Shown here piece by piece: positions 5,672 to 52,560 of a stretch of 64,000 bases of DNA. The translations under genes and the position numbers were made by a program. The stretch comes from Clostridia bacterium (GTDB lineage Bacteria; Bacillota; Clostridia; Oscillospirales; Acutalibacteraceae). The stretch's first letter is position 1, and each line of letters begins with the position of its first letter. Below the pieces are notes generated by a model. That model saw only the letters and a list, made by a program, of their open reading frames with translations, was not told the DNA's origin and made no database searches. Where the stretch lies: NCBI GenBank assembly GCA_017531385.1, contig JAFXLD010000043.1, forward strand, positions 15,681 to 79,680, given 5' to 3'.

Positions 5672-7393
5672 ATGACAGATTACAATTTCTTATACGAACT
5701 TTGGCTCAAAAATGCAGTCAATGATCCGGATCTTAAAGATGAACTCGAAAATATACAAGGTAACGATGCGGAAATTCTTGATCGCTTTTACAGAAGTCTT
5801 GAATTCGGCACAGGCGGTCTGCGTGGCGTAATTGGTGCAGGGACAAACAGAATGAATGTTTACACCGTTGCACAGGCAACACAGGGGCTTGCAAATTATC
5901 TTAACGAAGAGTTTGAAGAGCCTTCCGTTGCCATCGGTTATGATTCAAGAATCAAATCTCAGCTCTTTGCTGAAACTGCTGCAGGTGTTCTTGCCGCAAA
6001 CGGCATCAAGGTTTATATCTATTCCGAGCTTATGCCCACTCCCATGATTTCCTATGCCGTAATGCGACTTCATTGCAGTTCAGGTATCGTTATCACAGCG
6101 AGCCACAATCCTTCAAAATACAACGGTTACAAATGCTATGATTCCAAGGGTTACCAGATGACCGATGAAGGTGCAAAGAAAACTTACGATTATATCAGTA
6201 ATGTTGATATCTTCAATGATGTAAAATCAATGAGCTTTGATGATGCACTTGCAGAGGATATGGTTGACTTTATCGAAGACTGGCTTATTGATGATTTCTA
6301 CAGCGACGTTCTTTCACGTCAGATTGAAAAAGGCATCTGCAAAAAAGCCAACCTTAAAGTCATATACTCTCCTCTTAACGGCACAGGCAACAAGCCCGTT
6401 AAATCAATCCTTAAAAAAATCGGTGTAAAAGACCTTAAAATAGTTCTTGCTCAGGAAAAACCCGACGGTAACTTCCCCACCTGCCCATTCCCCAATCCCG
6501 AAATCCAGCAGGTGTTTGAAGAGGGCATGAAGCTGACTGCTGATTTCCCTGCAGACATTATGCTTGCAACCGACCCTGACTGTGACCGTGTTGGTATTGC
6601 TGTGCGTCACAACGGTGAATACAAGCTTATGACAGGTAACGAAGTCGGTTGTATGCTTACGGAATACATCCTTTCAAGAAAGAAAGCTCAGGGCACACTC
6701 TGCGATAATCCTGTTGTTGTAAAGACAATTGTTACAACAGAACTTATCAGAGCCATTGCAAAGGAATATAACGCAGAAGTTTTTGATCTTCTTACAGGCT
6801 TTAAATATATCGGTGAACTTATTGAACAGCTCAAAGACAAGGGCGAAGAAGACCGTTATGAAATCGGTCTTGAAGAAAGCTACGGTTACCTTACAGGTAC
6901 TCATGCAAGAGATAAGGATGCTGTCAACGCTTCAATGATGATTATTGAGATGGCTGCATACTATAAAACTCAGGGCTTGACACTTGTTGACGTTATGAAC
7001 AGCCTTTATGAAAAACACGGTATGTACCTCAATTCACTTCTCAACTTCGGTTTTGAAGGTGCTGACGGTATGAAGAAAATGGCTGACATGATGGATTCAA
7101 TGAGAAACAATCCTCCCGCAGAAATCGGCGGAATCAAAGTTGAAAAAGTTTCGGATTATCTCACAGGCAAGGCAACTGACACCGCAACAGGCAATACTGA
7201 AACAATTGATCTGCCTTCATCAAATGTTCTTTCCTACTCTCTTACAGATGACAACAAGGTTGTTGTAAGACCTTCAGGAACTGAACCCAAAATCAAAATT
7301 TATATCACTGCACATTCCGATACAAGAGAAAATGCAGAAAAACTTACAGATGTAATTGCAGAAAGTATTAAGAAAATAGCAGGTATTGAATAA
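5672..7393 (+). CDS. Phosphoglucomutase/phosphomannomutase-family phosphohexomutase (PgcA-like)
   Basis: 573 aa with active-site loop ITASHNPSKYNGYK, metal loop ATDPDCDRVG, and sugar/phosphate loops GLEESYGY and RPSGTEPKIK. Confidence 0.88.
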   Translation: MTDYNFLYELWLKNAVNDPDLKDELENIQGNDAEILDRFYRSLEFGTGGLRGVIGAGTNRMNVYTVAQATQGLANYLNEEFEEPSVAIGYDSRIKSQLFAETAAGVLAANGIKVYIYSELMPTPMISYAVMRLHCSSGIVITASHNPSKYNGYKCYDSKGYQMTDEGAKKTYDYISNVDIFNDVKSMSFDDALAEDMVDFIEDWLIDDFYSDVLSRQIEKGICKKANLKVIYSPLNGTGNKPVKSILKKIGVKDLKIVLAQEKPDGNFPTCPFPNPEIQQVFEEGMKLTADFPADIMLATDPDCDRVGIAVRHNGEYKLMTGNEVGCMLTEYILSRKKAQGTLCDNPVVVKTIVTTELIRAIAKEYNAEVFDLLTGFKYIGELIEQLKDKGEEDRYEIGLEESYGYLTGTHARDKDAVNASMMIIEMAAYYKTQGLTLVDVMNSLYEKHGMYLNSLLNFGFEGADGMKKMADMMDSMRNNPPAEIGGIKVEKVSDYLTGKATDTATGNTETIDLPSSNVLSYSLTDDNKVVVRPSGTEPKIKIYITAHSDTRENAEKLTDVIAESIKKIAGIE

Positions 7394-14460: not shown

Positions 14461-17175
14461 ATGAACTTTTACAGAGAAGAAGTAGATACCGTATTAAAAG
14501 AAGTCGGTTCATCTTCTGCAGGTCTTACATCGGCAGAAGCCGCAACAAGACTTGAGAAAAACGGTAAAAACAAGCTCAAACAGGCTGAAAAAGATTCCCT
14601 TTTAAAGAGATTCTTTGCGCAACTTACAGACCCGATGATTATCATTCTGTTGGTTGCGGCAGGTATTTCCGCTTTGCTTTCAATTCTTGCATTGACAGGT
14701 GTAGTTGAAGGCGAAAGTGAATTTGCAGATGTTATAATCATCCTTACAGTTGTTCTCATCAATGCAGTTCTCGGTGTTTATCAGGAAAGTAAAGCCGAAA
14801 AAGCAATTGAGGCACTGCAGGAAATGTCAGCCGCCACAACAAAAACTCTCCGTGACGGAAATGTTGTTGCAGTTAAGAGTGAAGATCTTGTTGTCGGCGA
14901 CGTTATCGTACTTGAAGCAGGTGATGCTATTCCTGCAGACTGCCGTATCATCGAATGTGCAAGCATGAAGATTGAAGAGGCTGCACTTACAGGTGAGTCC
15001 GTTCCCGTTACAAAAATGCTTGATGTCATCAACGGCAAAAAAGAGGATGCAGTTCCTCTCGGTGACAGAAAAAATATGGCATATATGGGTTCAACACTTG
15101 TATACGGCAGAGGTAAAGCTGTTGTTGTTGCAACAGGTATGGATACAGAAATGGGTAAAATTGCAGATGCTATCGCTTCTGCAGAAGAAGGTGAAACTCC
15201 CCTTCAGAAGAAGCTTTCACAGCTGAGTAAAATACTCACATTCCTTGTTATCGGCATTTGTGTATTCATCTTCGGCTTCCAGCTTGTAAAGACATTTGTA
15301 AGCGGTTCGGCACTTGATTTCTCTGTTGTTCTTGACTTCTTTATGGTTGCTATTTCTCTTGCTGTTGCTGCCATCCCCGAAGGTCTTGCCGCAGTTGTTA
15401 CAATTGTTCTTTCAATGGGCGTTACAACAATGTCCAAGAAAAACGCTATCATCAGAAAGCTCACTGCAGTTGAAACACTCGGTTGTGCGCAGATAATCTG
15501 TTCAGACAAAACAGGTACTCTCACTCAGAATGTCATGACAGTTGTTGACTCATACTGCGAGGATGAAAAGAATCTTGCAACTATGATGTCACTTTGTACA
15601 GACGTTACAGTCAACAGCGACGGTACAGTTACCGGTGAACCCACAGAAGCTGCTCTTGTTAACTTTGCAATAAAGCTTGGTCTTAACAAAAATGACCTTC
15701 AGGAAAAAATGCCCAGAGTTGCTGAAGCTCCTTTCGATTCAGGCAGAAAGATGATGTCTACACTTCACAAAACAGCAAACGGCATTGTTCAGTTCACAAA
15801 GGGTGCTCCCGATATCGTTGTAAGTCTTTGTAAATATGCTCAGTTTGAAGGCAAAGTTGTTCCCATGAGCGACGAAATCAAAGCAAAGATTTCTGCAGAA
15901 AACAAGAGAATGGCAGACAAGGCTCTCCGTGTTCTTGCCTGTGCAATGAAAAAATATCCCGAAATTCCCGCATCTACAGAACCTGCTGATCTTGAAAATG
16001 AAATGGTTTTCGTAGGTCTTACAGGTATGATTGATCCTGTCCGTCCTGAAGTAAAAGATGCAATTAACGAATGCAGAAGTGCAGGTATCACACCCATTAT
16101 GATTACAGGTGACCACAAAGATACTGCAGTTGCAATCGCAAAGGAACTCGGCATTATTTCAGACGAAAAGAATGCCATGACAGGTGCAGACCTTGAAAAG
16201 CTTTCTGACGAAGAATTTGACAATGTTGTTACAAATACATTCGTTTATGCCCGTGTTCAGCCCGAACACAAAACAAGAATCGTTACAGCATGGAAGAAAA
16301 AAGGCTATATCACTGCTATGACAGGCGACGGCGTTAACGATGCACCCTCAATCAAGAGTGCTGATATCGGTGTCGGCATGGGTATCACAGGTACAGACGT
16401 TACAAAGAATGTTGCAGACATGGTTCTTGCAGACGATAACTTTGCAACAATCGTTTCAGCAGTCGGTGAAGGCAGAAGAATTTATGACAACATCCGTAAA
16501 GCTATTCAGTTCCTTCTCGGATCAAACCTCTCGGAAGTTCTTTCTATCTTCTTTGCAACACTTCTCGGCTTCACAATTCTTGAAGCTCCCCATCTTCTCT
16601 GGATCAACCTTGTTACTGACTGCTTCCCTGCACTTGCTCTCGGTGTTGAAAAGCCCGAAAGCAACATCATGAAGAGAAAACCCAGAAGCACAAAAGACGG
16701 CATATTCTCAGGCGGTCTCGGTATTGATGTTCTCTATCAGGGTGTACTTGTAACACTTCTGACAATGGCTGCATACTTCGTTGGTGTAAACAGCGTAAAC
16801 GGTTTCAACTGGGATCTTTCAACATGGCAGTTCACAAACATTCAGCTTGGTACACCTGCAGGTCACCTCGGCACAACAATGGCATTCCTTACAATGTCAA
16901 TGTGTGAAATCTTCCATTCACTCAACATGCGTTCTCAGAGAGGCTCTATCTTCACAATGGCATTCAAGGGCAGCCACAACATTCTTCTCTATGGCTCAAT
17001 GATTGCAACACTTGTTCTTACAACACTTGTTATTGAAGTACCTTTCCTTGCAAATGCTTTTGATTTTGAAAAGCTCGACCTTGTTCACTATGGAATAGCT
17101 CTTGCAATTGCATTCCTTATCATTCCGATTGTTGAAATTGTAAAAGCAATTCAGCGTGCTACTGCAAAAAAATAA
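14461..17175 (+). CDS. P-type cation-transporting ATPase, Ca2+ (PMCA/SERCA-like, P2) type
   Basis: 904 aa from MNFYREEV. Motifs: TGES, PEGL, DKTGTLT, KGAPD, TGDGVNDAPS. The track ORF start at 14392 lies inside the terminator and is rejected. Confidence 0.9.
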   Translation: MNFYREEVDTVLKEVGSSSAGLTSAEAATRLEKNGKNKLKQAEKDSLLKRFFAQLTDPMIIILLVAAGISALLSILALTGVVEGESEFADVIIILTVVLINAVLGVYQESKAEKAIEALQEMSAATTKTLRDGNVVAVKSEDLVVGDVIVLEAGDAIPADCRIIECASMKIEEAALTGESVPVTKMLDVINGKKEDAVPLGDRKNMAYMGSTLVYGRGKAVVVATGMDTEMGKIADAIASAEEGETPLQKKLSQLSKILTFLVIGICVFIFGFQLVKTFVSGSALDFSVVLDFFMVAISLAVAAIPEGLAAVVTIVLSMGVTTMSKKNAIIRKLTAVETLGCAQIICSDKTGTLTQNVMTVVDSYCEDEKNLATMMSLCTDVTVNSDGTVTGEPTEAALVNFAIKLGLNKNDLQEKMPRVAEAPFDSGRKMMSTLHKTANGIVQFTKGAPDIVVSLCKYAQFEGKVVPMSDEIKAKISAENKRMADKALRVLACAMKKYPEIPASTEPADLENEMVFVGLTGMIDPVRPEVKDAINECRSAGITPIMITGDHKDTAVAIAKELGIISDEKNAMTGADLEKLSDEEFDNVVTNTFVYARVQPEHKTRIVTAWKKKGYITAMTGDGVNDAPSIKSADIGVGMGITGTDVTKNVADMVLADDNFATIVSAVGEGRRIYDNIRKAIQFLLGSNLSEVLSIFFATLLGFTILEAPHLLWINLVTDCFPALALGVEKPESNIMKRKPRSTKDGIFSGGLGIDVLYQGVLVTLLTMAAYFVGVNSVNGFNWDLSTWQFTNIQLGTPAGHLGTTMAFLTMSMCEIFHSLNMRSQRGSIFTMAFKGSHNILLYGSMIATLVLTTLVIEVPFLANAFDFEKLDLVHYGIALAIAFLIIPIVEIVKAIQRATAKK

Positions 17176-17187
17176 AACAAAAATTTT

Positions 17188-17219
17188 ACGGAGCTCTGAA
17201 AAGAGTTCCGTATTTTTTT
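17188..17219 (+). terminator. Intrinsic terminator after the ATPase gene
   Basis: ACGGAGCTC-TGAAAA-GAGTTCCGT followed by ATTTTTTT. Confidence 0.7.
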
Positions 17220-17302
17220 GTTTTTTTGGGGTTGAAGATTGTTGTATTTAGTGGTATATTATGTTCTTGTGAAAAATAATTACATATATTCAGGGTGATA
17301 AA

Positions 17303-18037
17303 ATGACAGGACTCGGCACAATTATAAATACTGCTGCGATAATTGTCGGCGGATTAGGTGGTATGATTTTCGGTAAAAAAATTCCCGATCGTTTACAGGA
17401 TACAATAATGAAGGCAAACGGTGTCTGCGTTATATTCATAGGAATCGCAGGTGCTCTGCAGGAAATGTTCACTATTTCTCCCGAAGGTAAACTCCAAAGC
17501 GGCGGCACAATGATGATGATCGGCTGTATTATAATCGGCTCCATTATCGGTGAAATTCTCAACATTGAACATCATCTTGAAACATTCGGAGAATGGCTCA
17601 AACGCAAGACAAAAAGTGACAAAGACACAGGCTTTGTTGACGGTTTTGTAACTGCATCACTTACCGTCTGCATCGGTGCAATGGCAGTCGTAGGCGCTGT
17701 ACAGGACGGCATAAACGGCGATTATTCCGTTCTTGCGGCAAAATCAGTTCTCGACCTTATTATTATAATGGTAATGACTGCATCAATGGGCAAAGGCTGT
17801 ATTTTCTCCGCTATTCCAATTGCTGTTTTCCAGGGGTCAATCACAATTCTTGCAACATTTATTGAACCCGTTCTTACCGAAACTGCCCTCTCCTACCTCT
17901 CACTTACAGGCTCAATGCTGATTTTCTGCGTCGGTGTCAATCTCACATGGGGCAAAATGATAAAAGTCGCAAATATGCTCCCCACAATTTTTATAGCCGT
18001 GATATGGGCTTTGGTTGAAAAGCTTATTGCGGTATAA
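17303..18037 (+). CDS. DUF554-family integral membrane protein (YdfK/YqgA-like)
   Basis: 244 aa, polytopic and hydrophobic. The N-terminus MTGLGTIINTAAIIVGGLGG and the internal GAVQDGINGDYSVLAAKSVLD resemble DUF554 proteins. Confidence 0.7.
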   Translation: MTGLGTIINTAAIIVGGLGGMIFGKKIPDRLQDTIMKANGVCVIFIGIAGALQEMFTISPEGKLQSGGTMMMIGCIIIGSIIGEILNIEHHLETFGEWLKRKTKSDKDTGFVDGFVTASLTVCIGAMAVVGAVQDGINGDYSVLAAKSVLDLIIIMVMTASMGKGCIFSAIPIAVFQGSITILATFIEPVLTETALSYLSLTGSMLIFCVGVNLTWGKMIKVANMLPTIFIAVIWALVEKLIAV

Positions 18038-18040
18038 CTC

Positions 18041-18069
18041 TTGACAATACATAATTTAACTGCTATAAT
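18041..18069 (+). promoter_or_regulatory. SigA-type promoter (perfect consensus, extended -10)
   Basis: TTGACA-17 nt-TATAAT, with TGC immediately upstream of the -10 hexamer. Confidence 0.65.
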
Positions 18070-18103
18070 TCAGAAAAAACACAATAAAAGGCTGGTGGAC
18101 AAA

Positions 18104-18157
18104 ATGACGAATCTTAATTTCCGAAATCGGAGAACCGTTTTGTCCGTTTGTGATTGA
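18104..18157 (+). CDS. Possible 17-codon leader peptide ORF (MTNLNFRNRRTVLSVCD)
   Basis: The ATG is preceded by GGUGG with a 5-nt spacer. The ORF spans both arms of the leader helix and stops 25 nt before the terminator stem. This is purely a sequence observation. Confidence 0.2.
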   Translation: MTNLNFRNRRTVLSVCD

Positions 18158-18181
18158 TGTAATAAATCTTTCTGAATTAAC

Positions 18182-18221
18182 AAGGCATCTCCGTATTCCG
18201 TGAGATGCTTTTTGTTTTTTT
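18182..18221 (+). terminator. Leader terminator
   Basis: AAGGCAUCUC-loop-GAGAUGCUU followed by UUUGUUUUUUU. The SD (AAGGTG) and ATG of the first gene follow immediately. Confidence 0.7.
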
Positions 18222-18233
18222 AAGGTGTTTAAT

Positions 18234-18719
18234 ATGAAAAAAATTATAATAATCGGCTGTCCGGGCAGCGGAAAAAGTACATTTGCCCGTAGTTTGCATG
18301 AAAAAACAGGCATACCGCTGTATTATCTCGATATTCTGAAATGGAATGCGGATAAAACTACTGTTTCAAAAGAAGTATTCCTACATAGACTTAATAATGT
18401 TTTATCAGAGAGCGAATGGATAATTGACGGAAATTATGCATCTACAATGGAACTGAGAGTGTCAATGTGTGACACTGTTTTCTTTCTTGATTATGACCTT
18501 GATGTTTGCCTTTCTGGCATAAAAGAACGACAGGGGAAAACCCGCCCTGATATGCCGTGGGTTGAAACAGAAGATGATGAAGAATTTATAGAATTTATAA
18601 GGAATTATAATACTCTGAATCGTCCGAAAGTTCTGGAAATATTAAAGAATAACAGAGATAAAGATATATTTGTTTTTAAAAACAGAGATGAAGCAGAATT
18701 ATATTTAAAAATGAGGTAA
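18234..18719 (+). CDS. P-loop NTPase, adenylate-kinase-like / topology-modulation (FlaR)-like small kinase
   Basis: 161 aa from MKKIIIIGCPGSGKSTFARSL (Walker A at the N-terminus, NMP-kinase-like size). SD AAGGTG lies 6 nt upstream. Confidence 0.7.
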   Translation: MKKIIIIGCPGSGKSTFARSLHEKTGIPLYYLDILKWNADKTTVSKEVFLHRLNNVLSESEWIIDGNYASTMELRVSMCDTVFFLDYDLDVCLSGIKERQGKTRPDMPWVETEDDEEFIEFIRNYNTLNRPKVLEILKNNRDKDIFVFKNRDEAELYLKMR

Positions 18720-18725
18720 CGTATT

Positions 18726-21017
18726 GTGATAAAAAGTCATATTGAATTCAAAAACGGAAAACCTTTTATAAACATTGACGGTGAACTTCATTCACCACTT
18801 GCATACACAACATATTTTGAGGAATGCGGTGAATTTTCTGATTTTATCAGAAGCGGTTACAGGATGTTTTTTGTGAATGTTTCCTTTACGGATCTTGCAA
18901 TAAACAATGTTTCGTTTTTTTCACCGTTCCTGACAGGTGTTTTTGAGGGTGATGCTCCTGATTATAATGAATTTGACGGTATTGTCAGAGAAATTTTATC
19001 TGAATGTCCCGATGCATTGATTTTTCCCAGAATCAACATTGCTATGCCCCGCAATTGGATTGAAAAAAACATATCAGAATGCGTTGAAACACCGTCAGGG
19101 TTGAGAGAGTCGCTCTGTTCCGAAAATTTCCTTTATGACGGTGCAGAGCTTCTGAAAGAGCTTGTTTCGCATATCCGATCTGCTGATTATTGTAACAGAA
19201 TTGCAGGATATCAGATATGCGGCGGTACAACACAGGAATGGATGCATCACGATATGGCAGGTTCGTTTTCTGAAAAGAGTTTCGATAAATTCCGTCTGTG
19301 GATGAAAGAAAAATACAATATAAATGATGTTCAAGAAATCACAAAAGATGACTTGTTTAGAGAAGGTCTTGATGAAACTGTCAGCCGATATTGGGAATTC
19401 TGCTGCAAATCGGCTTCACATGCCGTTGAGCACTTCTGTAAGGTGCTGAAAGACTACATAAATAATGAACAGGTCGCAGGTGTTTTCTACGGATATAATG
19501 CTTTTGTAAACGACCCTCTTCTCGGGCTTCTGGGTCTCAGACACATTATTGATTCACCCTATATCGACTTTTTCTCGTCGCCTTGTTGCTATGACGGAAA
19601 CAGAAAACTCGGCATTGACTGGGGTGATATGCTTCCTGCTGAAACCGTAAAAAATCACGGAAAACTTTATTTTGTGGAGTGTGATATAAGAACATACCTC
19701 ACACGAAGAATGCAGGATTCCCGTCCCGGTCGATATCCTGATAACATCCTCACTCTCACAGATGCTGAGGGGAATAAAACTGTGTGGTGCGGTCCCGAAA
19801 CAAAAGAACTTTCGCTTTCTGCTATCCGTAAAGCATTCGCACATCAGCTCACAAAAGGCTCAGGAATTTGGTGGTTTGATATGTGGGGCGGTTGGTATCA
19901 CGATGATGAAATTATGGCTGAAATGAAGAAAATGAAAGAGATTGCAGAGTCTTCAACAGAAAAAGATTCTGAGCATTTCCCACAGGCACAGACAGTTGTT
20001 TTTATTGATGAAAAAGCATATTTCAATAATCCCAGAGGCAGTCACTATTGTCATTGCGTAAATATCACAAGAGTTGCGATGGGTAATACGGGCATTCCTT
20101 TTGACACATGCATGACGGAAGATGCAGAGAAAGTGCTTCATAAATATAAAGCTGCAATTTTTACGGCTCCGTTGCCGTCAGAAAGCGGCAGAAAAGCCCT
20201 TGAAATGTGCAGAAAAATGAATATTCCGTATATTCAGGCAGATACCGAAAAATCATGGTTTACAACCGATGAATTGCGTGATTTACTTGTATCAAAGGGT
20301 GTTCATTGCTATAATTCCGACGGAAATGTAGTGTATTGCGGTGGTGGTTTTATCGGTATTCACACTGTAAATGACGGCATTGTTGATATTTCACTCCCTG
20401 AAATATACAGAGTCAGACAACTTCTCGGAACAGGTTATGCAGAGCGTGAAACGGACAAAATTTCACTGTATATGAAAACACATGATACCATTTTATTTGA
20501 GTTATACAGAAATGAACTCTGGGATATTTATGACATCAACCGCAATAAAACAGGCAGAACAGTCGAGCGTGGCAAACCGATGTCGCAGGATGAATACCAT
20601 ATAGTTGTTAATGTGTGGATTAAGAATTCGGACGGCAGATGGCTTATTTCAAAACGCTCACCGAACAAGCATTACGGTAATCTGTGGGAATGTTGCGGAG
20701 GGTCTGCTGTTTCAGGAGAAGACAGTCTTACTTCTGCTATACGTGAAGCAACAGAAGAACTCGGCATTGAGCTAAAACCTGACAACGGACACCTTTTTAC
20801 ATCTGCAATCCGTCAGTACAGAACTTTTCCCGATTTTCTTGATGTTTGGGTATTCAATCAGGATGTTGATATAAATACAGTTGTTCTGCAAGAGGAAGAA
20901 ACCTGCGATGCAAAATGGGCAACAAGTGAAGAAATTCTTACTATGGCAGAAAACGGTGAATTTATACCTCTGACAGTTTTCCCTTATCTTGAAAAACTGT
21001 TTGAAAGTGAGAGTTGA
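18726..21017 (+). CDS. Fusion protein: N-terminal glycoside-hydrolase-like (GH42/GH35-type TIM-barrel-like) region plus C-terminal Nudix hydrolase
   Basis: 763 aa with a GTG start behind GAGGT. The N-terminal ~600 aa loosely follows the GH42 layout (...PRNWIEKN...IAGYQICGGTTQEWMHH...FDKFRLWMKEKYN...). This part of the assignment is tentative. The C-terminal ~165 aa has a canonical Nudix box GSAVSGEDSLTSAIREATEELGI (about 20697-20768). Confidence 0.65.
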   Translation: MIKSHIEFKNGKPFINIDGELHSPLAYTTYFEECGEFSDFIRSGYRMFFVNVSFTDLAINNVSFFSPFLTGVFEGDAPDYNEFDGIVREILSECPDALIFPRINIAMPRNWIEKNISECVETPSGLRESLCSENFLYDGAELLKELVSHIRSADYCNRIAGYQICGGTTQEWMHHDMAGSFSEKSFDKFRLWMKEKYNINDVQEITKDDLFREGLDETVSRYWEFCCKSASHAVEHFCKVLKDYINNEQVAGVFYGYNAFVNDPLLGLLGLRHIIDSPYIDFFSSPCCYDGNRKLGIDWGDMLPAETVKNHGKLYFVECDIRTYLTRRMQDSRPGRYPDNILTLTDAEGNKTVWCGPETKELSLSAIRKAFAHQLTKGSGIWWFDMWGGWYHDDEIMAEMKKMKEIAESSTEKDSEHFPQAQTVVFIDEKAYFNNPRGSHYCHCVNITRVAMGNTGIPFDTCMTEDAEKVLHKYKAAIFTAPLPSESGRKALEMCRKMNIPYIQADTEKSWFTTDELRDLLVSKGVHCYNSDGNVVYCGGGFIGIHTVNDGIVDISLPEIYRVRQLLGTGYAERETDKISLYMKTHDTILFELYRNELWDIYDINRNKTGRTVERGKPMSQDEYHIVVNVWIKNSDGRWLISKRSPNKHYGNLWECCGGSAVSGEDSLTSAIREATEELGIELKPDNGHLFTSAIRQYRTFPDFLDVWVFNQDVDINTVVLQEEETCDAKWATSEEILTMAENGEFIPLTVFPYLEKLFESES

Positions 21018-21020
21018 TGT

Positions 21021-21932
21021 ATGAGCACTGAATTAATAAAACCCATTGTTGAAAAGATAATGAATACCGAGGTTAAAAGAATCCGTGCTATAGGTAAAGG
21101 TGCAAGCGGAAGTGTTTATCTTACCAAAATCTCAACCGAGCCTTTTGAAATCGCCGTCAAAACGAGCAAGTATTATGATGCCGTTTGCAAGGAACGTGCA
21201 ATGCTTGATTTTCTTTCGCCTAAGGTTTCATACAAAGTTCCGAAAACTTATTTCATACACAGAGAAAATGACACAGTATTTCTGGGAATGGATTACATCA
21301 AAGGCATGAGCGGTAAAAGTAAATATATAAACTTTATTCCGTCAAGAAAGCGGCTCAGGAACAGCATTATTGATGCTCTTATGAATGCACAAAGCGTGCA
21401 TAACGAGAAATTCGGTAAATATGATAATCCTGTTTATGACACCTGGGCTGAGTATTATAAAGATTATTTCGTTGATATTTACACCTTTACCAAAGCAAAG
21501 TTTGAGAAAAACGAGATTGAAGCCGAGATTATGGAAGCTGTTGAACTTATCAAAAAGAATTTCGATGAAATATTCAACGATACAAACAACACGGCATGTC
21601 TGTGTCATGGTGATTTCTGGATGCCGAATCTGATTATAGATTTTTGGAAATCCGAACTTGCAGGAGCAGTTGACCCGTTTGACATGCTGTGGGCAGAATC
21701 TGAATATGAACTCTTCTGCCTGACACTCGGATTCGGTGAAAAACTGAAACTCTATGATGAATATAAAAGAAGAAATCTGACTTCAAGATACTGTGATTTA
21801 AAGGTTGAAATGTATGCTCTGTGTAACGAACTGAACTGGTATATTCTTTTAGGGGAAATGGGACATGATTATCTTTTGTTCCGTGCAAAAAGACTTATAA
21901 AGATTATGAAAGAAATGGGATTGGAGCAATGA
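21021..21932 (+). CDS. Phosphotransferase-family kinase (APH/fructosamine-kinase-like fold)
   Basis: 303 aa with Gly-rich loop IGKGASGSVY, catalytic-loop motif HGDFWMPNL (HxDxxxxN), and downstream VDPFD. Confidence 0.7.
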   Translation: MSTELIKPIVEKIMNTEVKRIRAIGKGASGSVYLTKISTEPFEIAVKTSKYYDAVCKERAMLDFLSPKVSYKVPKTYFIHRENDTVFLGMDYIKGMSGKSKYINFIPSRKRLRNSIIDALMNAQSVHNEKFGKYDNPVYDTWAEYYKDYFVDIYTFTKAKFEKNEIEAEIMEAVELIKKNFDEIFNDTNNTACLCHGDFWMPNLIIDFWKSELAGAVDPFDMLWAESEYELFCLTLGFGEKLKLYDEYKRRNLTSRYCDLKVEMYALCNELNWYILLGEMGHDYLLFRAKRLIKIMKEMGLEQ

Positions 21933-22801
21933 TGGAGTTTATATCAAAAGAACCCATAAATAAAGGTTGGTCGTGTGACAAGAAATACTGTGTCACAACT
22001 GTTGATGGCACAAAATATCTTTTGCGTGTTACTCCTTTTGAAAAGAGTGCAAACCGTAAAAATATGTACTTAATGCAAAAAGAGGTTGAAAAACTCGGTG
22101 TCCCTATGTGCAAGCCTGTTGATTTCGGCAAGTGTGACGAAGGTGTTTATACTTTACAAACCTGGATTGACGGTAGGGATGCAGAAGAGGTTGTGCCTTT
22201 TCTTGCAGATTCAGAACAGTATGCACTGGGTCTGCAAGCAGGCAGAATTTTAAAGAAAATTCACTCGATTCCTGCTCCCGTGTATCAACCTGATTGGGAA
22301 GAGCGATTCAATAAGAAAATGGACAGAAAAATTCAGATGTATAATGACTGTCCCATAAAATTCGATGGTGCTGAACATATCATTGATTACATAGAGTCTA
22401 ACCGACATTTACTGAAAAACAGACCGCAAGCTTATCAGCACGGAGATTATCATATAGGTAACATGATGATAGAAAACGGAAAAATCGTAATCATAGATTT
22501 TGACCGTTTTGATTTCGGTGACCCATGGGAAGAATTCAACCGTATTGTGTGGTGTGCTCAGTCTGCTCCCGTTTTTGCATCAGGTATTGTCAATGGCTAT
22601 TTTGACGGCGAAGTACCTATGGATTTTTGGAAACTTCTTGCACTTTATATCAGTAGTAATATGCTTTCATCAATCCCGTGGGCAATTCCTTTCGGTGACG
22701 GTGAAGTTCAGACAATGCTGAATCAGGCAAAAGATGTTCTTAAGTGGTACGACAATATGCTCAATCCCGTGCCGACTTGGTACACAAATAATAAAAACTG
22801 A
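21929..22801 (+). CDS. Phosphotransferase-family kinase (aminoglycoside-phosphotransferase-like fold)
   Basis: 290 aa with HGDYHIGNMM (HxDxxxxN) and IIDFDRFDFGD. Its start overlaps the upstream stop (ATGA). Confidence 0.72.
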   Translation: MMEFISKEPINKGWSCDKKYCVTTVDGTKYLLRVTPFEKSANRKNMYLMQKEVEKLGVPMCKPVDFGKCDEGVYTLQTWIDGRDAEEVVPFLADSEQYALGLQAGRILKKIHSIPAPVYQPDWEERFNKKMDRKIQMYNDCPIKFDGAEHIIDYIESNRHLLKNRPQAYQHGDYHIGNMMIENGKIVIIDFDRFDFGDPWEEFNRIVWCAQSAPVFASGIVNGYFDGEVPMDFWKLLALYISSNMLSSIPWAIPFGDGEVQTMLNQAKDVLKWYDNMLNPVPTWYTNNKN

Positions 22802-22912
22802 ACAAATAATTCTTAAAACATTATTTCAAATAAATCTTGTCTTTTTCATATGCTTTATGCTAATATATAGAAAAACATAAATGTTTTTCAACCCTTACAC
22901 GGAGGTTTTACT

Positions 22913-24586
22913 ATGAGTATTTTAAAAACAGTAATTTCACTTCTTATGTCGTTTTTTATGCTTATCACAAACAGCATTACGGCTATTATTCCGGGCAATC
23001 TGCCTGAAACAAAGTCTGAAAAAGAACTGCTCAGAATGTCGGATATTTTCGATAAATATTCTCTTGCAGAGGAGATTTATGTTGTCAGAGGTGGGATTAC
23101 AAAGGATGAACTTGCGGCAATCCAGTCACTTCAGGGACTGGTAAGCAGAGACAAAGCGACCATTTTTATTAACTACGGCGTTGACTCAAAGACTGAACTT
23201 GAAGAGCTTAAAAATGCCGGTCACAAGCTCGTTTATACCGATGAAAACGGCGCAAACTGGACACTTAAAAACCTTGTGCCCCGTTTCGCATCTTACATAA
23301 AAGACAACGGATATGTTCTGTTCAAAGATTCCGACACTACCGAACAGATAAATATGGCTTTTAATTATTCAACTGTTTTCGGTTGGCTCGCAGTGCCTGC
23401 ATCTGCTGAAAGCATTGTAAAAGAGCTCGGGCTGAAAAAAATTGAAGATCTTACGGATGATGTAATCACAATTTCCTGTCAGCGTGATTTTTATGAAAAA
23501 TACAAGGACGAATTCAGAAAAGATTCTCTGGTTCACCTTTACGCAGAGGCCTCGGGACTTCGTGATTTCGCCATTCAGCAGAAAATTTTCATCACATTTG
23601 CAAAAGATGATGATTACATTGCCCGTGCATTCCGTGAGGAATTGCTTAAAGACCTTGAACCTGCTTCAGTTATTCTCGGCTGGTGTCAGTATGAGGTTCA
23701 GTATACAGAAGCTGTTTCAGCATTCGGTCATTATGTTGTGCCGTCAGATCACAGCTTCAACATGAGTATACTCAACTGCCTTGATCTTGGTGAAATCAAA
23801 CTCGGCAGCGAAACTCAGGCACCTGAGCTTGACCCCACAAAGCATTATGTGGCAATCGTATACAGTGACGGTGACAACGCACAGTGGATATCAAATGGTT
23901 TCAGAGAATTCCACACGTGGCAGACATTCGATATCGACACTCCGATAACATGGACATTTGCTCCTCTTATGAATGAATTTTCACCCGTTGCAGTAAAGAA
24001 AGCAACAGAAAATGTTGGCGATGATTCATTTATTACAGGTCCTTCGGGTGTAGGTTATGCGAGAATTTCAAAAATGTCTGCAGAAGAGCTTGAAAGCTAC
24101 TCTGATCTGACAGCCGCAATAATGCTGAAAACAGGCTTAACCACAATAACACTTCTTGATGAACCTCTTAATCTTCCCCAAAATGTATTTATTAACAAGC
24201 TCAGCTATTTTGCAAGATATGATAACATAAACGGCGGTATTCTGCAGATTGACCCCTCAAGATATGAAGGCGGTAAGGGCAAAGTTTTCTTTGCAGGTGA
24301 CAAACCCTTCGTCAGTGTCCGTTTGTCACTCTGGCACCCCTCGGGCAATGCCGATGAAGTGACACAGGAATGGCTGAAAGAACAGGCAGACATTGTCAAC
24401 AGCTACCCTGCTGATATAAATTCAATTAATGGTTATTCGGTAATAAATGTTCATCCATGGACTGTAGGTCCCGATGATTTAGCATATTTCGTCAGTCAGC
24501 TTGATGACGGTGTTGAAGTGATTTCCGCAGATGAACTTATATCTGCAATAACACAGAACGTTCCTCACAAAACAGCAGAACCCTGA
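22913..24586 (+). CDS. Membrane-anchored/secreted protein, GxGYxYP-family putative glycoside hydrolase (tentative)
   Basis: 557 aa with an N-terminal hydrophobic anchor MSILKTVISLLMSFFMLITNSITAI. The segment GPSGVGYARI resembles the GxGYxYP motif. The family call is from memory only. Confidence 0.5.
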   Translation: MSILKTVISLLMSFFMLITNSITAIIPGNLPETKSEKELLRMSDIFDKYSLAEEIYVVRGGITKDELAAIQSLQGLVSRDKATIFINYGVDSKTELEELKNAGHKLVYTDENGANWTLKNLVPRFASYIKDNGYVLFKDSDTTEQINMAFNYSTVFGWLAVPASAESIVKELGLKKIEDLTDDVITISCQRDFYEKYKDEFRKDSLVHLYAEASGLRDFAIQQKIFITFAKDDDYIARAFREELLKDLEPASVILGWCQYEVQYTEAVSAFGHYVVPSDHSFNMSILNCLDLGEIKLGSETQAPELDPTKHYVAIVYSDGDNAQWISNGFREFHTWQTFDIDTPITWTFAPLMNEFSPVAVKKATENVGDDSFITGPSGVGYARISKMSAEELESYSDLTAAIMLKTGLTTITLLDEPLNLPQNVFINKLSYFARYDNINGGILQIDPSRYEGGKGKVFFAGDKPFVSVRLSLWHPSGNADEVTQEWLKEQADIVNSYPADINSINGYSVINVHPWTVGPDDLAYFVSQLDDGVEVISADELISAITQNVPHKTAEP

Positions 24587-24600
24587 TTAACAGACGCAAC

Positions 24601-24632
24601 AACGGACTCAGAATTTTTCTGAGTCCGTTTTC
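24601..24632 (+). terminator. Intrinsic terminator
   Basis: AACGGACTCAG-AATTTTT-CTGAGTCCGTT followed by TT (the T-run overlaps the 3' arm). Confidence 0.7.
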
Positions 24633-24649
24633 ATATGCTTTTATATTAA

Positions 24650-25276
24650 TCAGTAAAGTGACATAACTGCCTTTTCAATTTGTTCTGCTACTTTTTCAAC
24701 AGTTCCGTCGGCATTGATTACAACGATATTTTCTTTATCTTTAAGTGAATCAATCACATTATAAAATCTTTTGCGTATACTGGTAAGGTACTCTGTGTTT
24801 TCATATATTTCAATCTCATCTGCGTTTCTGTTTGCATTGATGCGCTCCATGCTCTTTTCAGGCAGAAGATCAAGAAAAATACAAAGGTCGGGTTTTCTGA
24901 TGTCCTCACAGTCAAGATTCAGGCTCATAAGCCAATCAAGCCCAACATCAACACCCTGATATGCAAGAGTTGAGTAATAATATCTGTCAGAAATGACAGT
25001 ATCACCCTTGCCTATGTGCATATTTATACCGTCTTCGGGATTGAGATTATGGTCGATTCTGTCAGCTGTAAAAAGCAATGCAAACTGGCTTTTTGTAACC
25101 CTTTTTCTGCCCGAAAGCACTTCACGGCACATTTTTCCGAACTCATGAGGTGTCGGCTCTGCCTGATTTATAACATTAATTCCCTTTGATTTAAGCTTTT
25201 CTGTTATGATATTTGTCTGAGTGGTTTTTCCTGAGCCGTCAAGGCCTTCAATAACAATAAATTTTCCTTTTTCCAT
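24650..25276 (-). CDS. tmk: Thymidylate kinase
   Basis: 208 aa, MEKGKFIVIEGLDGSGKTTQ...EPT...DRYYYSTLAYQ. Confidence 0.92.
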   Translation of the reverse strand: MEKGKFIVIEGLDGSGKTTQTNIITEKLKSKGINVINQAEPTPHEFGKMCREVLSGRKRVTKSQFALLFTADRIDHNLNPEDGINMHIGKGDTVISDRYYYSTLAYQGVDVGLDWLMSLNLDCEDIRKPDLCIFLDLLPEKSMERINANRNADEIEIYENTEYLTSIRKRFYNVIDSLKDKENIVVINADGTVEKVAEQIEKAVMSLY

Positions 25277-25280
25277 AGTT

Positions 25281-26144
25281 CTACCTCATTTTATAAAGCT
25301 CTTCGCTGAGTGTAAAAAGCTCTTCCATTGTAAGCTTTTCAGCTCTCACAGTTGTTTCAAGTCCTGCATTTGAAAGTGCTGAAAAAATCTTATCCTTAGC
25401 CATTCCGAGACCCGATGACAAACCGTTTGCTGCTGTTTTTCTTCTCTGTGAAAATGCGGCTTTTACAACACTGAAAAAGAATTTTTCATCTGTCGGAGCA
25501 AATTCGGGTTTTTCTCTGACAGTAAGCTTTATAACTTCACTGTCAACATTGGGAGAAGGCATAAATGACTCTCTGGGCACAAAGAAAAGCTCCTCTGCTT
25601 CGGAATAATAATTAACCGCAACGGAAACAGCTCCTGCATCTCTCGAACCGATTTCTGCACAAAGCCGCTCTCCTGCCTCTTTCTGCACCATAACGGTTAT
25701 TGCTGTCAGAGGCAGTCTGCTTTCAAGCAGCATCATTATAATCGGCGATGTGATATAATACGGCAGATTGGCAATGACATGAATATTCCTGCAATCCGAA
25801 AAACTTTCTTTAAAAAGTCTGTCAAGATCGGTTTTCATCACATCGGCATTGATGACTTCCACATTGGTAAAATCTTCAAGAGTGTCACCAAGCACGGGAA
25901 TAAGTCTTGTATCAAGTTCGAGTGATACGACTTTTTTTGCCTTTTTTGCAATTTCCTGAGTAAGCACACCCACACCGGGACCGATTTCAAGAACACCGTC
26001 TTCTTCGGTAATACCCGATTTTTCAACAATCATTGGACAGACATCGGCATCAATGATAAAATTCTGTCCCAATGCTTTTGAAAAGGTTACACCATGGCGT
26101 GACATTATGCGTTTAATTGTGTTTATATCTGTTAAATTATACAT
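25281..26144 (-). CDS. rsmA: 16S rRNA (adenine1518/1519-N6)-dimethyltransferase
   Basis: 287 aa, FSKALGQNFIID...VLEIGPGVGVLT...ANLPYYITSPI. Confidence 0.93.
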   Translation of the reverse strand: MYNLTDINTIKRIMSRHGVTFSKALGQNFIIDADVCPMIVEKSGITEEDGVLEIGPGVGVLTQEIAKKAKKVVSLELDTRLIPVLGDTLEDFTNVEVINADVMKTDLDRLFKESFSDCRNIHVIANLPYYITSPIIMMLLESRLPLTAITVMVQKEAGERLCAEIGSRDAGAVSVAVNYYSEAEELFFVPRESFMPSPNVDSEVIKLTVREKPEFAPTDEKFFFSVVKAAFSQRRKTAANGLSSGLGMAKDKIFSALSNAGLETTVRAEKLTMEELFTLSEELYKMR

Positions 26145-26146
26145 AA

Positions 26147-27115
26147 TTATATTCCTAATTTCTGCTGTCTGACATCTCTTCCTGCAAAGGTAAGAATGTT
26201 ATATTCACCGATGATTCTTGATGCAATTCGCTCGGAATATCTCTTCTGCAGCTCTGTAAGGTTTAAATTTGTGCTGATTATTGTCGGTTTTGATGTAAGC
26301 ATTCTTGTGTTGACGATATTATTGAATGTTGCAACCGTGAAACTTGTTGTAAATTCAGCTCCAAGGTCATCAAGAATGAGAAGATCACATTCAAGAAGCA
26401 TTTTTTCAGTTGTGCCGTCTGAGTCTGCCGATCTTCCGAAATGTTCTTTTTCCACATTGGAAAAAAGATTCTGCACAGAACCGTAAACCACACCGTAGCC
26501 TTTTTTCAGAACTTCACCTGCAATTGCCAGTGAAAGATGTGTTTTTCCGAGTCCTGTTTCACCCATCATCAGAATGCTGTATGAGTTAAGATCAAAGCTG
26601 TTTGCATAATTCAGACAGAATTCGTAATTACGGCTCATCAGGCTGTAATTTTCTTTTGTATTATTATAATATTCAAGGCTGAAATCGTCAAAAGTAGATA
26701 TTTTAAGGGGTGAACTTTTGCAGAGCTGTTCATAAGAAAGCTGCCTGAGAAGCTCAAGGTGGCATTTACACAGTTTGCCATCCTTGAAACCTGTATCGTT
26801 GCAAAGAGAACAGGTATACACCGGCTCAAGGTAATTTTCACCGTATCCCATATCAACAAGAAGACTTCTTATCCTTGCCTGGGCTTCAAGGTTTTCATTG
26901 CGAAGATTTTCTATATATTCCAGCGTTTTTTCACCCATACCTATGACCTTTACAAGACCGTAAGCTGATCTTCGCATTTTATCCTCAAGCTCTCGGATTT
27001 CCGGGCACTTCACTGTAATAGACATATGTCTGTCAGATGCTTCTGCCTCGGCTTTCATTCGTCTTTCGGCGATTTTTTCAGTTGCAAGGGCAAATAATTT
27101 TTCATTGTATGCCAT
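26147..27115 (-). CDS. dnaI: DnaI/DnaC-like helicase-loader AAA+ ATPase
   Basis: 322 aa from MAYNEKLF. It has a zinc-binding N-domain (CSLCNDTGF..KLCKCH), Walker A GETGLGKTHL and Walker B LLILDDLG. It sits directly downstream of a DnaD-domain gene. Confidence 0.8.
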   Translation of the reverse strand: MAYNEKLFALATEKIAERRMKAEAEASDRHMSITVKCPEIRELEDKMRRSAYGLVKVIGMGEKTLEYIENLRNENLEAQARIRSLLVDMGYGENYLEPVYTCSLCNDTGFKDGKLCKCHLELLRQLSYEQLCKSSPLKISTFDDFSLEYYNNTKENYSLMSRNYEFCLNYANSFDLNSYSILMMGETGLGKTHLSLAIAGEVLKKGYGVVYGSVQNLFSNVEKEHFGRSADSDGTTEKMLLECDLLILDDLGAEFTTSFTVATFNNIVNTRMLTSKPTIISTNLNLTELQKRYSERIASRIIGEYNILTFAGRDVRQQKLGI

Positions 27116-27119
27116 TATA

Positions 27120-28169
27120 TCACTGTCCTTTTTTTGTCTTGGTCGGGTCGATGGCAAGACTTCTCTTCATAGCAAGTTCTATATCATACGACGGCTTTTT
27201 GTCGTTTTCTGCTTTCGTTGCAGGTTTTTGCATACCGTTTGCAAATTCTTCTGCCGCACGTTCCGCATCTTCTATGGTTTTAAAACCGCTTTCAAACCAT
27301 GAACGCAAAACTCCGTTCATATAGCTGAAACTGATTTTTCCTTTTTTCTCAACGGTTTTTTCATAAGCATGATAAATCATATCAATATTATATGAATAAT
27401 CATTTATCCATATTTCAAGAAACTCTGCTTGTTTAGCTGTCGGTCGGGGATTTTCAACTCCCGTAAGCCGTTTGAATTCTGCCCAGATATTCTGAGCATT
27501 TTCCATTCTCGCAATTTTGTGGCTTGCAGAATCAAAATCAGTTATTCCTTCTTCTGCCCATGATTTACCTATCTGAACTATGTAAGCAATAGCACCTTGT
27601 TTGCCGACAGTTTTTGCATAACTGCACAACATAACGATAACTTCGGCAGGCAGACCGTAATGATCGTGAAGAATCAGCAGGTTTGACTGACCGTCATATC
27701 CTAATGTTCTGCCGAAAACCTCCTGGACTTCATTGAACATCGATGCAACTTCACTTGATTCGTCAAGACGTCTTGCAATATCTTTAATGGATGGCTTTAC
27801 AATAACAACTTTTTCTTTTTCCTGTTTTTCAGGCTTTGTAACAGATTTCTGAACAACAGTAAATGTTGATTTTTCGGCTCTTAACTGCTGTGATGCCGAA
27901 ACAGTTTCGGTCTGCACAGGAACGGGAGCTTCACCGTCTTTCATAACAAGCCCTGCATCTATCCAGTAAAGCATCGCATCATCAATTTCATCCCTGGGTA
28001 TTCCTGTGTCACGGGAAATAACATCAAGGTCAAAGGTTGTATTCGGATTTCTGAACAGCCACAAAAGCACCTTCAGCTGGGCTTTGCCTGCCATACGAAG
28101 ATGCTTGTCTGCAATCTGAGTCGGCAATACAAACACCGACGCATATGAACCTGGATTCACTTTATACAT
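27120..28169 (-). CDS. DnaD-domain replication initiation protein (DnaB/DnaD-like co-loader)
   Basis: 349 aa with a winged-helix-like N-terminus and two DnaD/DnaB_2-type repeats (...YIVQIGKSWAEEGITD... and ...SYMNGVLRSWFESGFKT...). Confidence 0.75.
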   Translation of the reverse strand: MYKVNPGSYASVFVLPTQIADKHLRMAGKAQLKVLLWLFRNPNTTFDLDVISRDTGIPRDEIDDAMLYWIDAGLVMKDGEAPVPVQTETVSASQQLRAEKSTFTVVQKSVTKPEKQEKEKVVIVKPSIKDIARRLDESSEVASMFNEVQEVFGRTLGYDGQSNLLILHDHYGLPAEVIVMLCSYAKTVGKQGAIAYIVQIGKSWAEEGITDFDSASHKIARMENAQNIWAEFKRLTGVENPRPTAKQAEFLEIWINDYSYNIDMIYHAYEKTVEKKGKISFSYMNGVLRSWFESGFKTIEDAERAAEEFANGMQKPATKAENDKKPSYDIELAMKRSLAIDPTKTKKGQ

Positions 28170-52275: not shown

Positions 52276-52560
52276 GAAAAACTCCGTCTCAACAAAGAGA
52301 CGGAGCATAAGTCCGTGGTACCACTCTAATTGGTGAAAAATCACCCACTCAATTCACACATCGGGCACGAAGCCGAATATGCTACTTCATTAACGATGAA
52401 GCTCCGTTCTTCCTACACGACCGCCTTAAAGACGGTGTTCAGTCGACCGCTCGAAGGAGAGATACGATCACTCACGGCTACAACCTCACACCACCCGGTT
52501 GCTCTCTGAAAACACCGCTACGAATGACCCTTTAGCCTTGTCATTGCGTTTATCTGTATT
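52276..52560 (-). promoter_or_regulatory. T-box leader (leucine operon)
   Basis: The minus strand carries Stem I elements (AGAGAG, distal GGUGGUGUGAGG, CUUCGAGCG K-turn side) and the T-box sequence AAUUAGAGUGGUACCACGG. The terminator is CUCCGUCUC-UUUGUU-GAGACGGAG plus UUUUU (52276-52306). Leu codons CUC and CUG occur at the two possible specifier positions. Confidence 0.85.

Follow-up and report, generated by a model that had tools for sequence, protein, structure and literature searches.

Upstream open reading frame (uORF) attenuators, as in the cplR, vmlR, lsaA, vga(A), erm, and cat leaders, share a translated uORF, a 5′ hairpin that sequesters it, and an intrinsic terminator whose 5′ arm is able to pair with the strand released from that hairpin. 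In the C. difficile cplR leader, where this arrangement was tested, a 5′ hairpin sequesters the uORF, a terminator follows, and ribosomes stalled on the uORF by antibiotic bring about induction (PMC10201436). Leaders of the cplR/vmlR type control one ABC-F, Erm, or Cat gene, whereas the leader described here, which judged from sequence alone has the cplR two-hairpin layout (PMC10201436), precedes up to ~15–20 unrelated genes. We studied it in a 64,000-nt stretch (hereafter the window) of the Clostridia bacterium contig JAFXLD010000043.1 (GCA_017531385.1; forward strand, 15,681–79,680), where it stands before four genes, g1–g4, and we document the anatomy, conservation, mosaicism, fusion origin, and purifying selection of this locus. 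On balance, we favor the view, taken as a whole, that the region is what one strain has kept of an enzyme array belonging to a leader-controlled family, which is found across Acutalibacteraceae/Oscillospirales of ruminant hindguts, and that such an array is a battery induced by translation stress. We hold the composite origin, the array family, and the uORF attenuator with much greater confidence than the function.

Four co-oriented ORFs follow one promoter and one leader:

18041..18069, + strand: sigma-70 promoter (TTGACA, 17-nt spacer, TATAAT, TG extension; 12/12 consensus)
18234..18719, + strand: g1, 161 aa, P-loop nucleoside monophosphate (NMP) kinase-like
18726..21017, + strand: g2, 763 aa, GTG start, predicted GH42-like part fused to a Nudix domain
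21021..21932, + strand: g3, 303 aa, fructosamine/ketosamine-kinase-like, APH fold
21929..22801, + strand: g4, 290 aa, APH-fold small-molecule kinase-like

Here and below, "kinase" for g1, g3, and g4 is a fold or family assignment predicted from sequence. A first-pass annotation of the window had placed the four genes at these coordinates, with spacings of 6 nt, 3 nt, and −4 nt (an ATGA overlap), and the ORF positions bear this out; an alternative ATG of g4 at 21932 would give a 1-nt overlap with g3 instead. It had also assigned the genes a shared promoter and leader without internal terminators, and this holds as well. The promoter is the best-scoring site of the region, and promoter-like matches inside g1–g4 are no commoner than chance. 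Terminator-like sites number 9, within chance of the 5.7 ± 2.3 expected; none within g1–g4 is convincing, and one weak match lies inside g1.

The leader spans ~165 nt between promoter and g1 and ends in a terminator hairpin followed by a U-tract. Its elements are:

18091..18151, + strand: leader 5′ hairpin, in which the Shine-Dalgarno (SD) sequence and AUG of the uORF (18091–18106) pair with uORF codons 12–17 (18136–18151)
18104..18157, + strand: uORF of 17 codons encoding MTNLNFRNRRTVLSVCD, then UGA
18128..18136, + strand: putative antiterminator 5′ strand, CGGAGAACC, uORF codons 9–11, complementary to the terminator 5′ arm
18184..18221 (approx.), + strand: leader intrinsic terminator, GGCATCTC...GAGATGC, then the U-tract

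Related leaders were collected by scanning species-representative genomes with a pattern of the invariant leader core, which returned at least 119 stretches (L numbers below denote sequence stretches from other genomes); the comparison set comprises 120 related leaders and the window, with 26 nt fixed by the search pattern. Arrays reached by another route, through their protein homologues, carry the same leader: nhmmer with the window leader matched L013 (1e-16) and L015 (3e-21), both reached via g3 homologues, and L139 (3e-36), reached via a g2 homologue, and in all three an equivalent promoter lies 5′ of the leader.

Across the 120 leaders, RNAalifold predicts a 16-bp 5′ helix in which at most 3/120 sequences are unpaired at any position; pairing reaches 99.9% in its 8-bp core, although the search pattern fixed part of this hairpin's 3′ strand. 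The terminator forms a 10-bp GC-rich helix that is 99.3% paired in the same set. A 9-bp pairing of uORF codons 9–12 (CGGAGAGCC) with the terminator 5′ arm (GGCATCTCCG) can form in the alternative fold (94.4% paired), and it shows covariation: one pair is G-C in 102 leaders and A-U in 14, and 0/500 shuffles reach the observed value. The uORF itself is preceded by the SD sequence GGTGGA, 5 nt 5′ of the AUG, and an in-frame uORF of 17–19 codons, ending [RS]AVLSVC[D]-stop, is kept in 120/120 leaders and in the window. The stop is UGA in 118/120 and the last sense codon is GAU (Asp) in 106/120; in the window, these two codons occupy 18152–18157.

A different kind of RNA could account for some of these features. 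If the leader were a ligand-binding riboswitch or a protein-binding RNA with an incidental short ORF, the array would sense a small molecule, and the very conserved 16-bp helix with its conserved flanking nucleotides, the poor conservation of the N-terminal half of the peptide, and a fold more stable than that of shuffled sequences (z = −3.3) would all be in keeping with it. However, uORF lengths are only 51, 54, or 57 nt, all multiples of three, whereas the adjacent spacer between stop and terminator varies freely (ten lengths, all three mod-3 classes). The SD sequence stands at the correct distance, and start and stop are never lost in the set. The variable loop of the leader has no conserved internal structure. 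No Rfam family reaches its gathering score in the leader, the best matches in E-value mode (0.28–1.5) being to unrelated snoRNA and sRNA models. Because insertions and deletions in the uORF stay in frame, we regard an RNA of this type as improbable and prefer a translated uORF.

We suggest the following mechanism for such a uORF attenuator. The strong promoter would drive the leader with its encoded 17-codon uORF. In the resting fold, the SD sequence and AUG of the uORF would be paired with its own 3′ codons and the downstream terminator would halt transcription. Were a ribosome to be held on the uORF, the 5′ hairpin would open and release CGGAGAACC, which would then pair with the terminator 5′ arm, and RNA polymerase would read through into the array. 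We infer inducibility, the sensed signal, and the substrates of the enzymes rather than observing them. HIT, GNAT, and S66 peptidase enzymes are classes that confer resistance to aminoacyl-nucleotide (microcin C-type) inhibitors of aspartyl-tRNA synthetase (AspRS). The Asp codon before the uORF stop, together with the HIT, GNAT, and S66 proteins of the arrays, is suggestive of a leader that may sense an AspRS inhibitor, which we put forward as an idea.

The loci that carry the leader are almost all in MAGs (metagenome-assembled genomes) assigned to Acutalibacteraceae, Oscillospiraceae, or "Clostridia" from goat, sheep, deer, buffalo, and cattle hindgut. The leader is present in at least ~100 species-level genomes; the window has a single copy, and some genomes carry two or three. 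In several MAGs (JAZSGZ, JAZPYI), three leaders lie on different contigs, and in L079 two leaders, at 2806–2901 (−) and 6396–6493 (+), stand ~3.5 kb apart with divergent arrays. To establish array content, we called ORFs with a simple program on 8-kb tiles of MAG contigs and clustered them by BLAST under strict coverage; looser single-linkage clustering had merged GNATs and kinases via fusion proteins.

Downstream of the leader come same-strand runs of up to ~15–20 tightly spaced, translationally coupled genes. Intergenic gaps have a median of 9 nt, 80% are ≤25 nt, and 46 junctions are 4-nt overlaps. The g3 homologues of other MAGs (71–88% identical) lie in such runs, among GNATs, S-adenosylmethionine (SAM) methyltransferases, an AP_endonuc_2 TIM barrel, a rhomboid, P-loop kinases, HAD, an S66 peptidase, and an FMN reductase. 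By count, the pool of array families contains:

HIT-like proteins, 36 members; at least seven GNAT clusters; four SAM-methyltransferase clusters
the g1 family, present in 23 arrays; the TIM barrel (18), a His-phosphatase (12), the rhomboid (9), g3 (8), and g4 (7)
further members: AAA_18 and AAA_33 kinases, UDG-like, radical-SAM, FAD-monooxygenase, AlkD-like, S66 peptidase, HAD, and Nudix

P-loop kinases of three kinds and two APH-fold kinases are represented, and GNATs and small-molecule methyltransferases dominate the arrays. Content varies from array to array, whereas order does not: 428 of 451 co-occurring family pairs (95%) stand in the majority order. Judging from these sequence comparisons, each array seems to draw a different subset from one ordered master list. 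What emerges is a regulon-like system, in which one leader absent from Rfam stands before hundreds of GNAT, methyltransferase, kinase, and hydrolase genes in an abundant ruminant-gut family. It also amounts to a natural experiment in operon evolution, with order kept, content varying, and neighbors often fusing.

In-frame fusions of array neighbors are common, for example GNAT::Nudix and a g4-type APH joined to a second protein-kinase-like domain (559–560 aa). Other fused or extended array genes encode g1-type proteins of 320–337 aa, HIT of 395 aa, AAA_18 of 312 aa, and methyltransferase of 421 aa. Fusion examples are located at:

L086, 6930–7871
L015, 8909–10591
L085, 3006–4685

A 15-gene array in L015/L016 lies between a TnpV gene (2049–2192) and NikA-like/relaxase genes (L015 15812–16909), and some arrays may therefore ride on mobilizable elements. 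The L139 array consists of GNAT, AAA_18, and g2N (the N-terminal part of g2), and 99 nt further on stands a pair of MsbA-like ABC exporter genes (L139 10890–14493); an ABC-F identity was considered for these ABC genes and rejected.

The families of g1, g2N, the Nudix domain, g3, and g4 each occur in other arrays. Another 22 non-redundant leader-linked arrays contain g1 homologues (47–70% identity), whose position within the array varies, a g1-type kinase beside g2N recurs in L139, and the g3-g4 adjacency recurs in L015/L016 and L131. Of the four-gene set and its leader, the leader recurs, at no fewer than 119 loci, but the set does not: in ~120 other leader-linked arrays examined, the full g1–g4 combination is absent. 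By the first-pass annotation's own standard, scattered genes in related genomes would count against a module, and such scattering is largely what is seen.

How the window came by this combination is suggested by a sister strain. The contig that carries a 97% identical g2 homologue (L001) is nearly identical to the window on both sides of a single interval. By blastn, L001 1–5541 matches window 14964–20504 at 98.9%, and L001 5709–10307 matches window 22820–27418 at 99.2%. Between the two blocks lies:

20505..22819, + strand: strain-variable block of 2315 bp holding Nudix, g3, and g4; absent from L001

The L001 allele has g1 and a g2 of 594 aa, without Nudix, g3, or g4, and holds 167 bp in place of the block. 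This filler is what remains of a TIM-barrel gene of the AP_endonuc_2 (CbiR-like) kind known from the arrays: its first ~52 codons, frameshifted, at L001 5566–5720. A foreign origin of the block was considered and rejected: its GC content of 0.387 equals that of the flanks, and the synonymous divergence (dS) to its nearest homologues is ~1.

The fusion within g2 is real. An identical 763-aa protein recurs on 9 contigs, of which four places examined represent four samples with the same chromosomal context; the fusion is therefore not an assembly error. The two parts of the protein are:

18726..20504, + strand: g2 N-terminal part (g2N), residues 1–594, predicted GH42-like three-domain fold
20514..21017, + strand: Nudix domain of g2, fused in frame, its own first two codons missing

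Stand-alone Nudix relatives begin MREFWDIYD or MSEIWDIYD, and the Nudix homology of the window begins ELWDIYD, right after ...LFELYRN of the GH42-like part. L086 has a 90% identical Nudix domain, likewise starting at ELWDIYD, joined to a GNAT; P0241/P0242 show this GNAT fusion too. The sequences thus identify the glycosidase-like::Nudix fusion as a probable deletion scar. The simplest history would be a longer ancestral array at this locus, trimmed by two different deletions. That of the window would have removed the genes between the GH42-like and Nudix genes, welding both in frame, and that of the sister strain would have begun within the TIM gene and extended through the end of g4. Since the fusion partner is interchangeable and the scar is a bare 2–3 residues, the fusion argues for an accident and not a selected bifunctional enzyme.

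The other half of the fusion tells the same story from its homologues. The g2N family has at least 724 members; the 120 homologues listed span 548–629 aa (mostly ~593 aa), and all 120 are stand-alone proteins that cover only the first 78% of g2. Outside arrays, g2N homologues adjoin glycan-utilization genes (GH127, GH38, GH92, GH3, GH109, NAGidase, and GxGYxYP), and because of this g2N looks like a gene recruited into the array. Examples of the family are:

window, 18726–20504
L003, 7967–9748
L138, 9001–10803

These findings bear on the first-pass proposal of one module for a phosphorylated glycoside or nucleotide sugar. In its strictest form, the P-loop kinase, the glycosidase::Nudix protein, and the two APH-fold kinases would act in sequence on one phosphorylated glycoside, nucleotide sugar, or aminoglycoside-like compound. 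Such a dedicated pathway draws on the tight coupling of g1–g4 behind a common leader, on a glycosidase fold and a pyrophosphohydrolase in one polypeptide, and on the second and third instances of the g3-g4 adjacency. Yet the sister strain does without three of the five domains, the Nudix fusion partner differs between genomes, g2N homologues are otherwise stand-alone and often found among glycan-utilization genes, g3 usually follows a rhomboid gene, and the set is repeated in no other array examined. We consider a pathway of this kind highly improbable. Neither the glycosidase::Nudix "architecture" nor the four-gene "pathway" should be propagated as a functional unit; what the window contains is a deletion product within a leader-controlled array.

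Each component can nevertheless be assigned on its own, and the fold calls of the first-pass annotation (P-loop, glycosidase-like::Nudix, and two APH-fold proteins) are upheld by profile searches and a fold model of g2N. For g1, which has the Walker A motif GCPGSGKS, the nearest model is NF005994 (FlaR/"topology modulation protein"-like; E 9e-43, 146.3 bits against a cutoff of 215). By sequence, g1 is probably a P-loop NMP-kinase-like relative of NF005994 below the equivalog level; against Protein Data Bank (PDB) sequences its P-loop stretch is the sole match. The Nudix domain (g2 residues 624–741) matches PF00293 (53.6 bits; cutoff 21.1), and its Nudix box, GSAVSGEDSLTSAIREATEELG at g2 residues 659–680, is intact by the GX5EX7REUXEEXGU definition. 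The MutT equivalog model scores the domain at 27.6 bits, under its cutoff of 97.9.

By sequence, g2N is more elusive: it has no Pfam, NCBIfam, or PDB sequence match, none is found with a 36-sequence profile against PDB, and Pfam at E up to 5 returns nothing for g2N or for P0028 (which carries a precomputed PF26214 tag). An AlphaFold2 model of g2 residues 1–594 is confident (predicted local distance difference test [pLDDT] 83, predicted template-modeling score [pTM] 0.88), and in Foldseek this predicted structure matches GH42 glycosidases at E 3e-15 and a TM score of ~0.6. The GH42/GH35 structures matched are 6y2k, 5xb7, 3tts, and 1kwg. Like GH42 β-galactosidases and α-L-arabinopyranosidases (and GH35 exo-glucosaminidases), g2N is predicted to combine a TIM barrel, an α/β domain, and a β-sandwich; unlike GH42 enzymes proper, it has only ~10% sequence identity to them and no sequence-profile match. 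Because this confident model matches the GH42 fold, "glycosidase-like" appears to be correct at the fold level. Residues Q170-E171-W172 and E318 are invariant across g2N homologues, making E171 and E318 a candidate catalytic Glu pair by sequence; their spacing presumably resembles that of the GH42 acid/base and nucleophile. On this model, the family of ~593 aa is a candidate for a new, unannotated glycosidase-like family of at least 724 members.

Both g3 and g4 carry an HxDxxxxN catalytic loop and a metal-binding Asp. In g3, PF03881 (Fructosamin_kin) matches over the full length at 49.7 bits (cutoff 22.4) and PF01636 (APH) at 39.3 bits (cutoff 23.2), and the motifs HGDFWMPN and VDP are present. 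The protein falls short of the YniA equivalog PRK10593 (74.9 bits; cutoff 319) and has no match among PDB sequences. Its array homologues usually stand 3′ of a rhomboid gene. In g4, PF01636 reaches 122.4 bits (cutoff 23.2), the motifs are HGDYHIGN and IDFD, and the best PDB sequence match is the amicoumacin kinase 6sui (E 8e-5); many of its array homologues (73–92% identity) are fusions of 559–560 aa that include a second kinase domain. Models of characterized resistance APHs (APH(3′), APH(2″)) score g3 and g4 at 15–31 bits (at most 31.4 for g3 and 23.5 for g4) against cutoffs of 205–625, so that the earlier caution against calling either APH-fold protein a bona fide resistance enzyme was well placed. 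PADLOC found no defense system among the window proteins: it returned a generic Nudix match (PDC-S07, 41 bits), a weak P-loop match, and nothing for g3 or g4.

The genes bear the mark of selection. Compared with the nearest array homologues, the ratio of nonsynonymous to synonymous divergence (dN/dS) is 0.13 for g2N, 0.05 for Nudix, 0.06–0.07 for g3, and 0.06–0.11 for g4, and dS is ~1 or above in each comparison. Hence, g2N, Nudix, g3, and g4 are under purifying selection; at such ratios they are functional, and they are not recent transfers. The same values decide against the notion that the arrays are eroding operon remnants in which g1–g4 have merely escaped deletion and lack a current function. 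Alternative deletions in two strains, a pseudogene remnant in L001, and frequent in-frame fusions are what neutral decay would leave behind, but the catalytic motifs are intact, and ~100 species have kept the leader, some genomes with as many as three arrays. We therefore give neutral decay almost no weight and treat the arrays as working gene sets.

As to what such sets do, N-acetyltransferases, O-phosphotransferases, methyltransferases, HIT and S66 hydrolases, and flavin monooxygenases are classes known to inactivate antibiotics or antimetabolites. The arrays hold classes of this type together with damage-handling enzymes (Nudix, UDG-like, and AlkD-like), which is why we read them as chemical defense. 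Each enzyme would act on a small-molecule substrate of its own, independently of the rest, and the set as a whole would be an inducible battery that counters translation-targeting antibiotics, antimetabolites, and other xenobiotics. The first-pass suggestion of detoxification or antibiotic inactivation thus survives as the best guess for the variable array as a whole, but not for g1–g4 as a pathway.

The enzyme content could also be read as a metabolite-repair, "housecleaning," or salvage operon that would deal with damaged nucleotides, cofactors, and proteins and whose expression would follow translational status, not antibiotics. Nudix, HIT, a ketosamine kinase, a CbiR-like phosphodiesterase, a CobC-like phosphatase, and UDG-like and AlkD-like proteins would be natural members of such an operon: g3 is a member of the fructosamine-kinase family, the arrays contain UDG and DNA_alkylation domains, the Nudix domain is close to YfcD/MutT-type enzymes, and NCBIfam similarity to CbiR and CobC is present below threshold. 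Against this, GNATs and small-molecule methyltransferases predominate, content is highly variable among close relatives, which is unusual for housekeeping repair, and all the similarities fall under curated cutoffs. Cobamide genes normally stand behind B12 riboswitches, and the leader matches no Rfam family. A repair role is in our judgment unlikely, and we retain chemical defense as the preferred function.

A bolder version of the chemical-defense reading is that a single ribosome-stalling sensor switches on up to ~15–20 independent drug-, antimetabolite-, and damage-handling enzymes, forming an undescribed inducible "chemical-defense super-operon" whose repertoire is tailored by deletion and exchange from an ordered pool. 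We offer this tentatively and think that it could well prove wrong. Several points weigh against the interpretation of the arrays as a translation-stress battery in general. First, no array protein passes a curated resistance-family cutoff, and some resemble enzymes of other processes: the TIM protein resembles CbiR (80.8 bits; cutoff 105), the His-phosphatase CobC (99.5 bits; cutoff 163), and g3 the protein-repair ketosamine kinases. Second, the UDG-like and AlkD-like proteins point toward DNA damage and away from translation, and the rhomboid protease and the GH42-like protein do not fit a drug-modification theme. Third, 95% colinearity could reflect one coherent ancestral operon with a single purpose. 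Fourth, the C-terminal codons of the uORF are also constrained by RNA pairing, and conservation there is partly by construction because of the 26 nt fixed in the search; the antiterminator rests on one covarying pair, which may represent few evolutionary events. Finally, crude ORF calling on 8-kb tiles leaves many arrays incomplete.

The implications scale with the claim. If the leader senses translation inhibitors as cplR and vmlR do, the arrays would be an inducible reservoir of modifying enzymes missed by resistance databases, and the uORF sequence would indicate the class of drug sensed. If the super-operon proposal is true, gut Clostridia would constitute a large hidden reservoir of resistance-type enzymes that current resistance databases do not recognize.

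Beyond g4, the window continues with:

22913..24586, + strand: g5, GxGYxYP family protein (PF14323 at 131.9 bits)
24601..24632, + strand: strong intrinsic terminator, 13-bp hairpin followed by UUUUC (minimum free energy of the folded stretch −20.3 kcal/mol, z = −6.55)

The g5 gene is a chromosomal neighbor present in both the window and L001 alleles; no other leader-linked array examined has a homologue, so it is not an array family. No terminator was found between g4 and g5, and the one at 24601–24632, past g5, is the first strong + strand terminator 3′ of the leader, so g5 may be co-transcribed with the array. Searches for a longer ancestral allele at the locus used g5: an exact-protein look-up gave the window-type allele only, and a metagenome scan gave two short, distant contigs only. 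Elsewhere in the window, a T-box leader at 52293–52553 (−) matches RF00230 (94.1 bits, E 2.5e-19); no other Rfam family exceeds its gathering score anywhere in the window.

Seen against known systems, the arrays resemble integron cassette arrays in variability and gene types. Both consist of variable, co-oriented, mostly promoterless small genes, rich in GNATs, behind one upstream promoter, and in both content differs between close relatives. Unlike integrons, however, the arrays have gaps too short for attC (median 9 nt, 80% ≤25 nt), in-frame fusions are common, and no integrase was seen among the called neighbors in L001, L007, L013, L015, and L017. Because order is 95% colinear, the variation looks like differential deletion and homologous exchange and not like site-specific capture.

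At the level of single proteins, g3 and g4 share the APH/eukaryotic-like kinase fold, the HxDxxxxN loop, and the metal-binding Asp with APH, Mph, and the amicoumacin kinase AmiN, but stand far below the curated resistance cutoffs given above. With the fructosamine-3-kinase family (FN3K; E. coli YniA), g3 shares full-length PF03881, HGD(F/L)WxxN, and (V/I)DP; it differs in lying below the YniA equivalog cutoff and in its usual coupling to a rhomboid gene in arrays, a pairing that to our knowledge has no counterpart among characterized FN3K-family genes. Bifunctional resistance enzymes such as AAC(6′)-Ie/APH(2″)-Ia consist of two modifying enzymes joined by gene fusion, and g2 likewise joins two enzymes by fusion of neighbors. 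It differs in that the partner joined to its Nudix domain can vary, being GH42-like in the window and a GNAT in L086, and the junction is 2–3 residues.

With respect to regulation, the nearest parallel is again the uORF attenuator. The array uORF has 17–19 codons, compared with 3–4 in cplR and vmlR, and almost always ends in Asp-UGA. In the literature searched, we found neither its peptide nor a paper describing such arrays, and the leader sequence and peptide were not found described. By analogy, the regulation of these arrays resembles that of known uORF attenuators of resistance genes, but here it would act on a multi-enzyme array.

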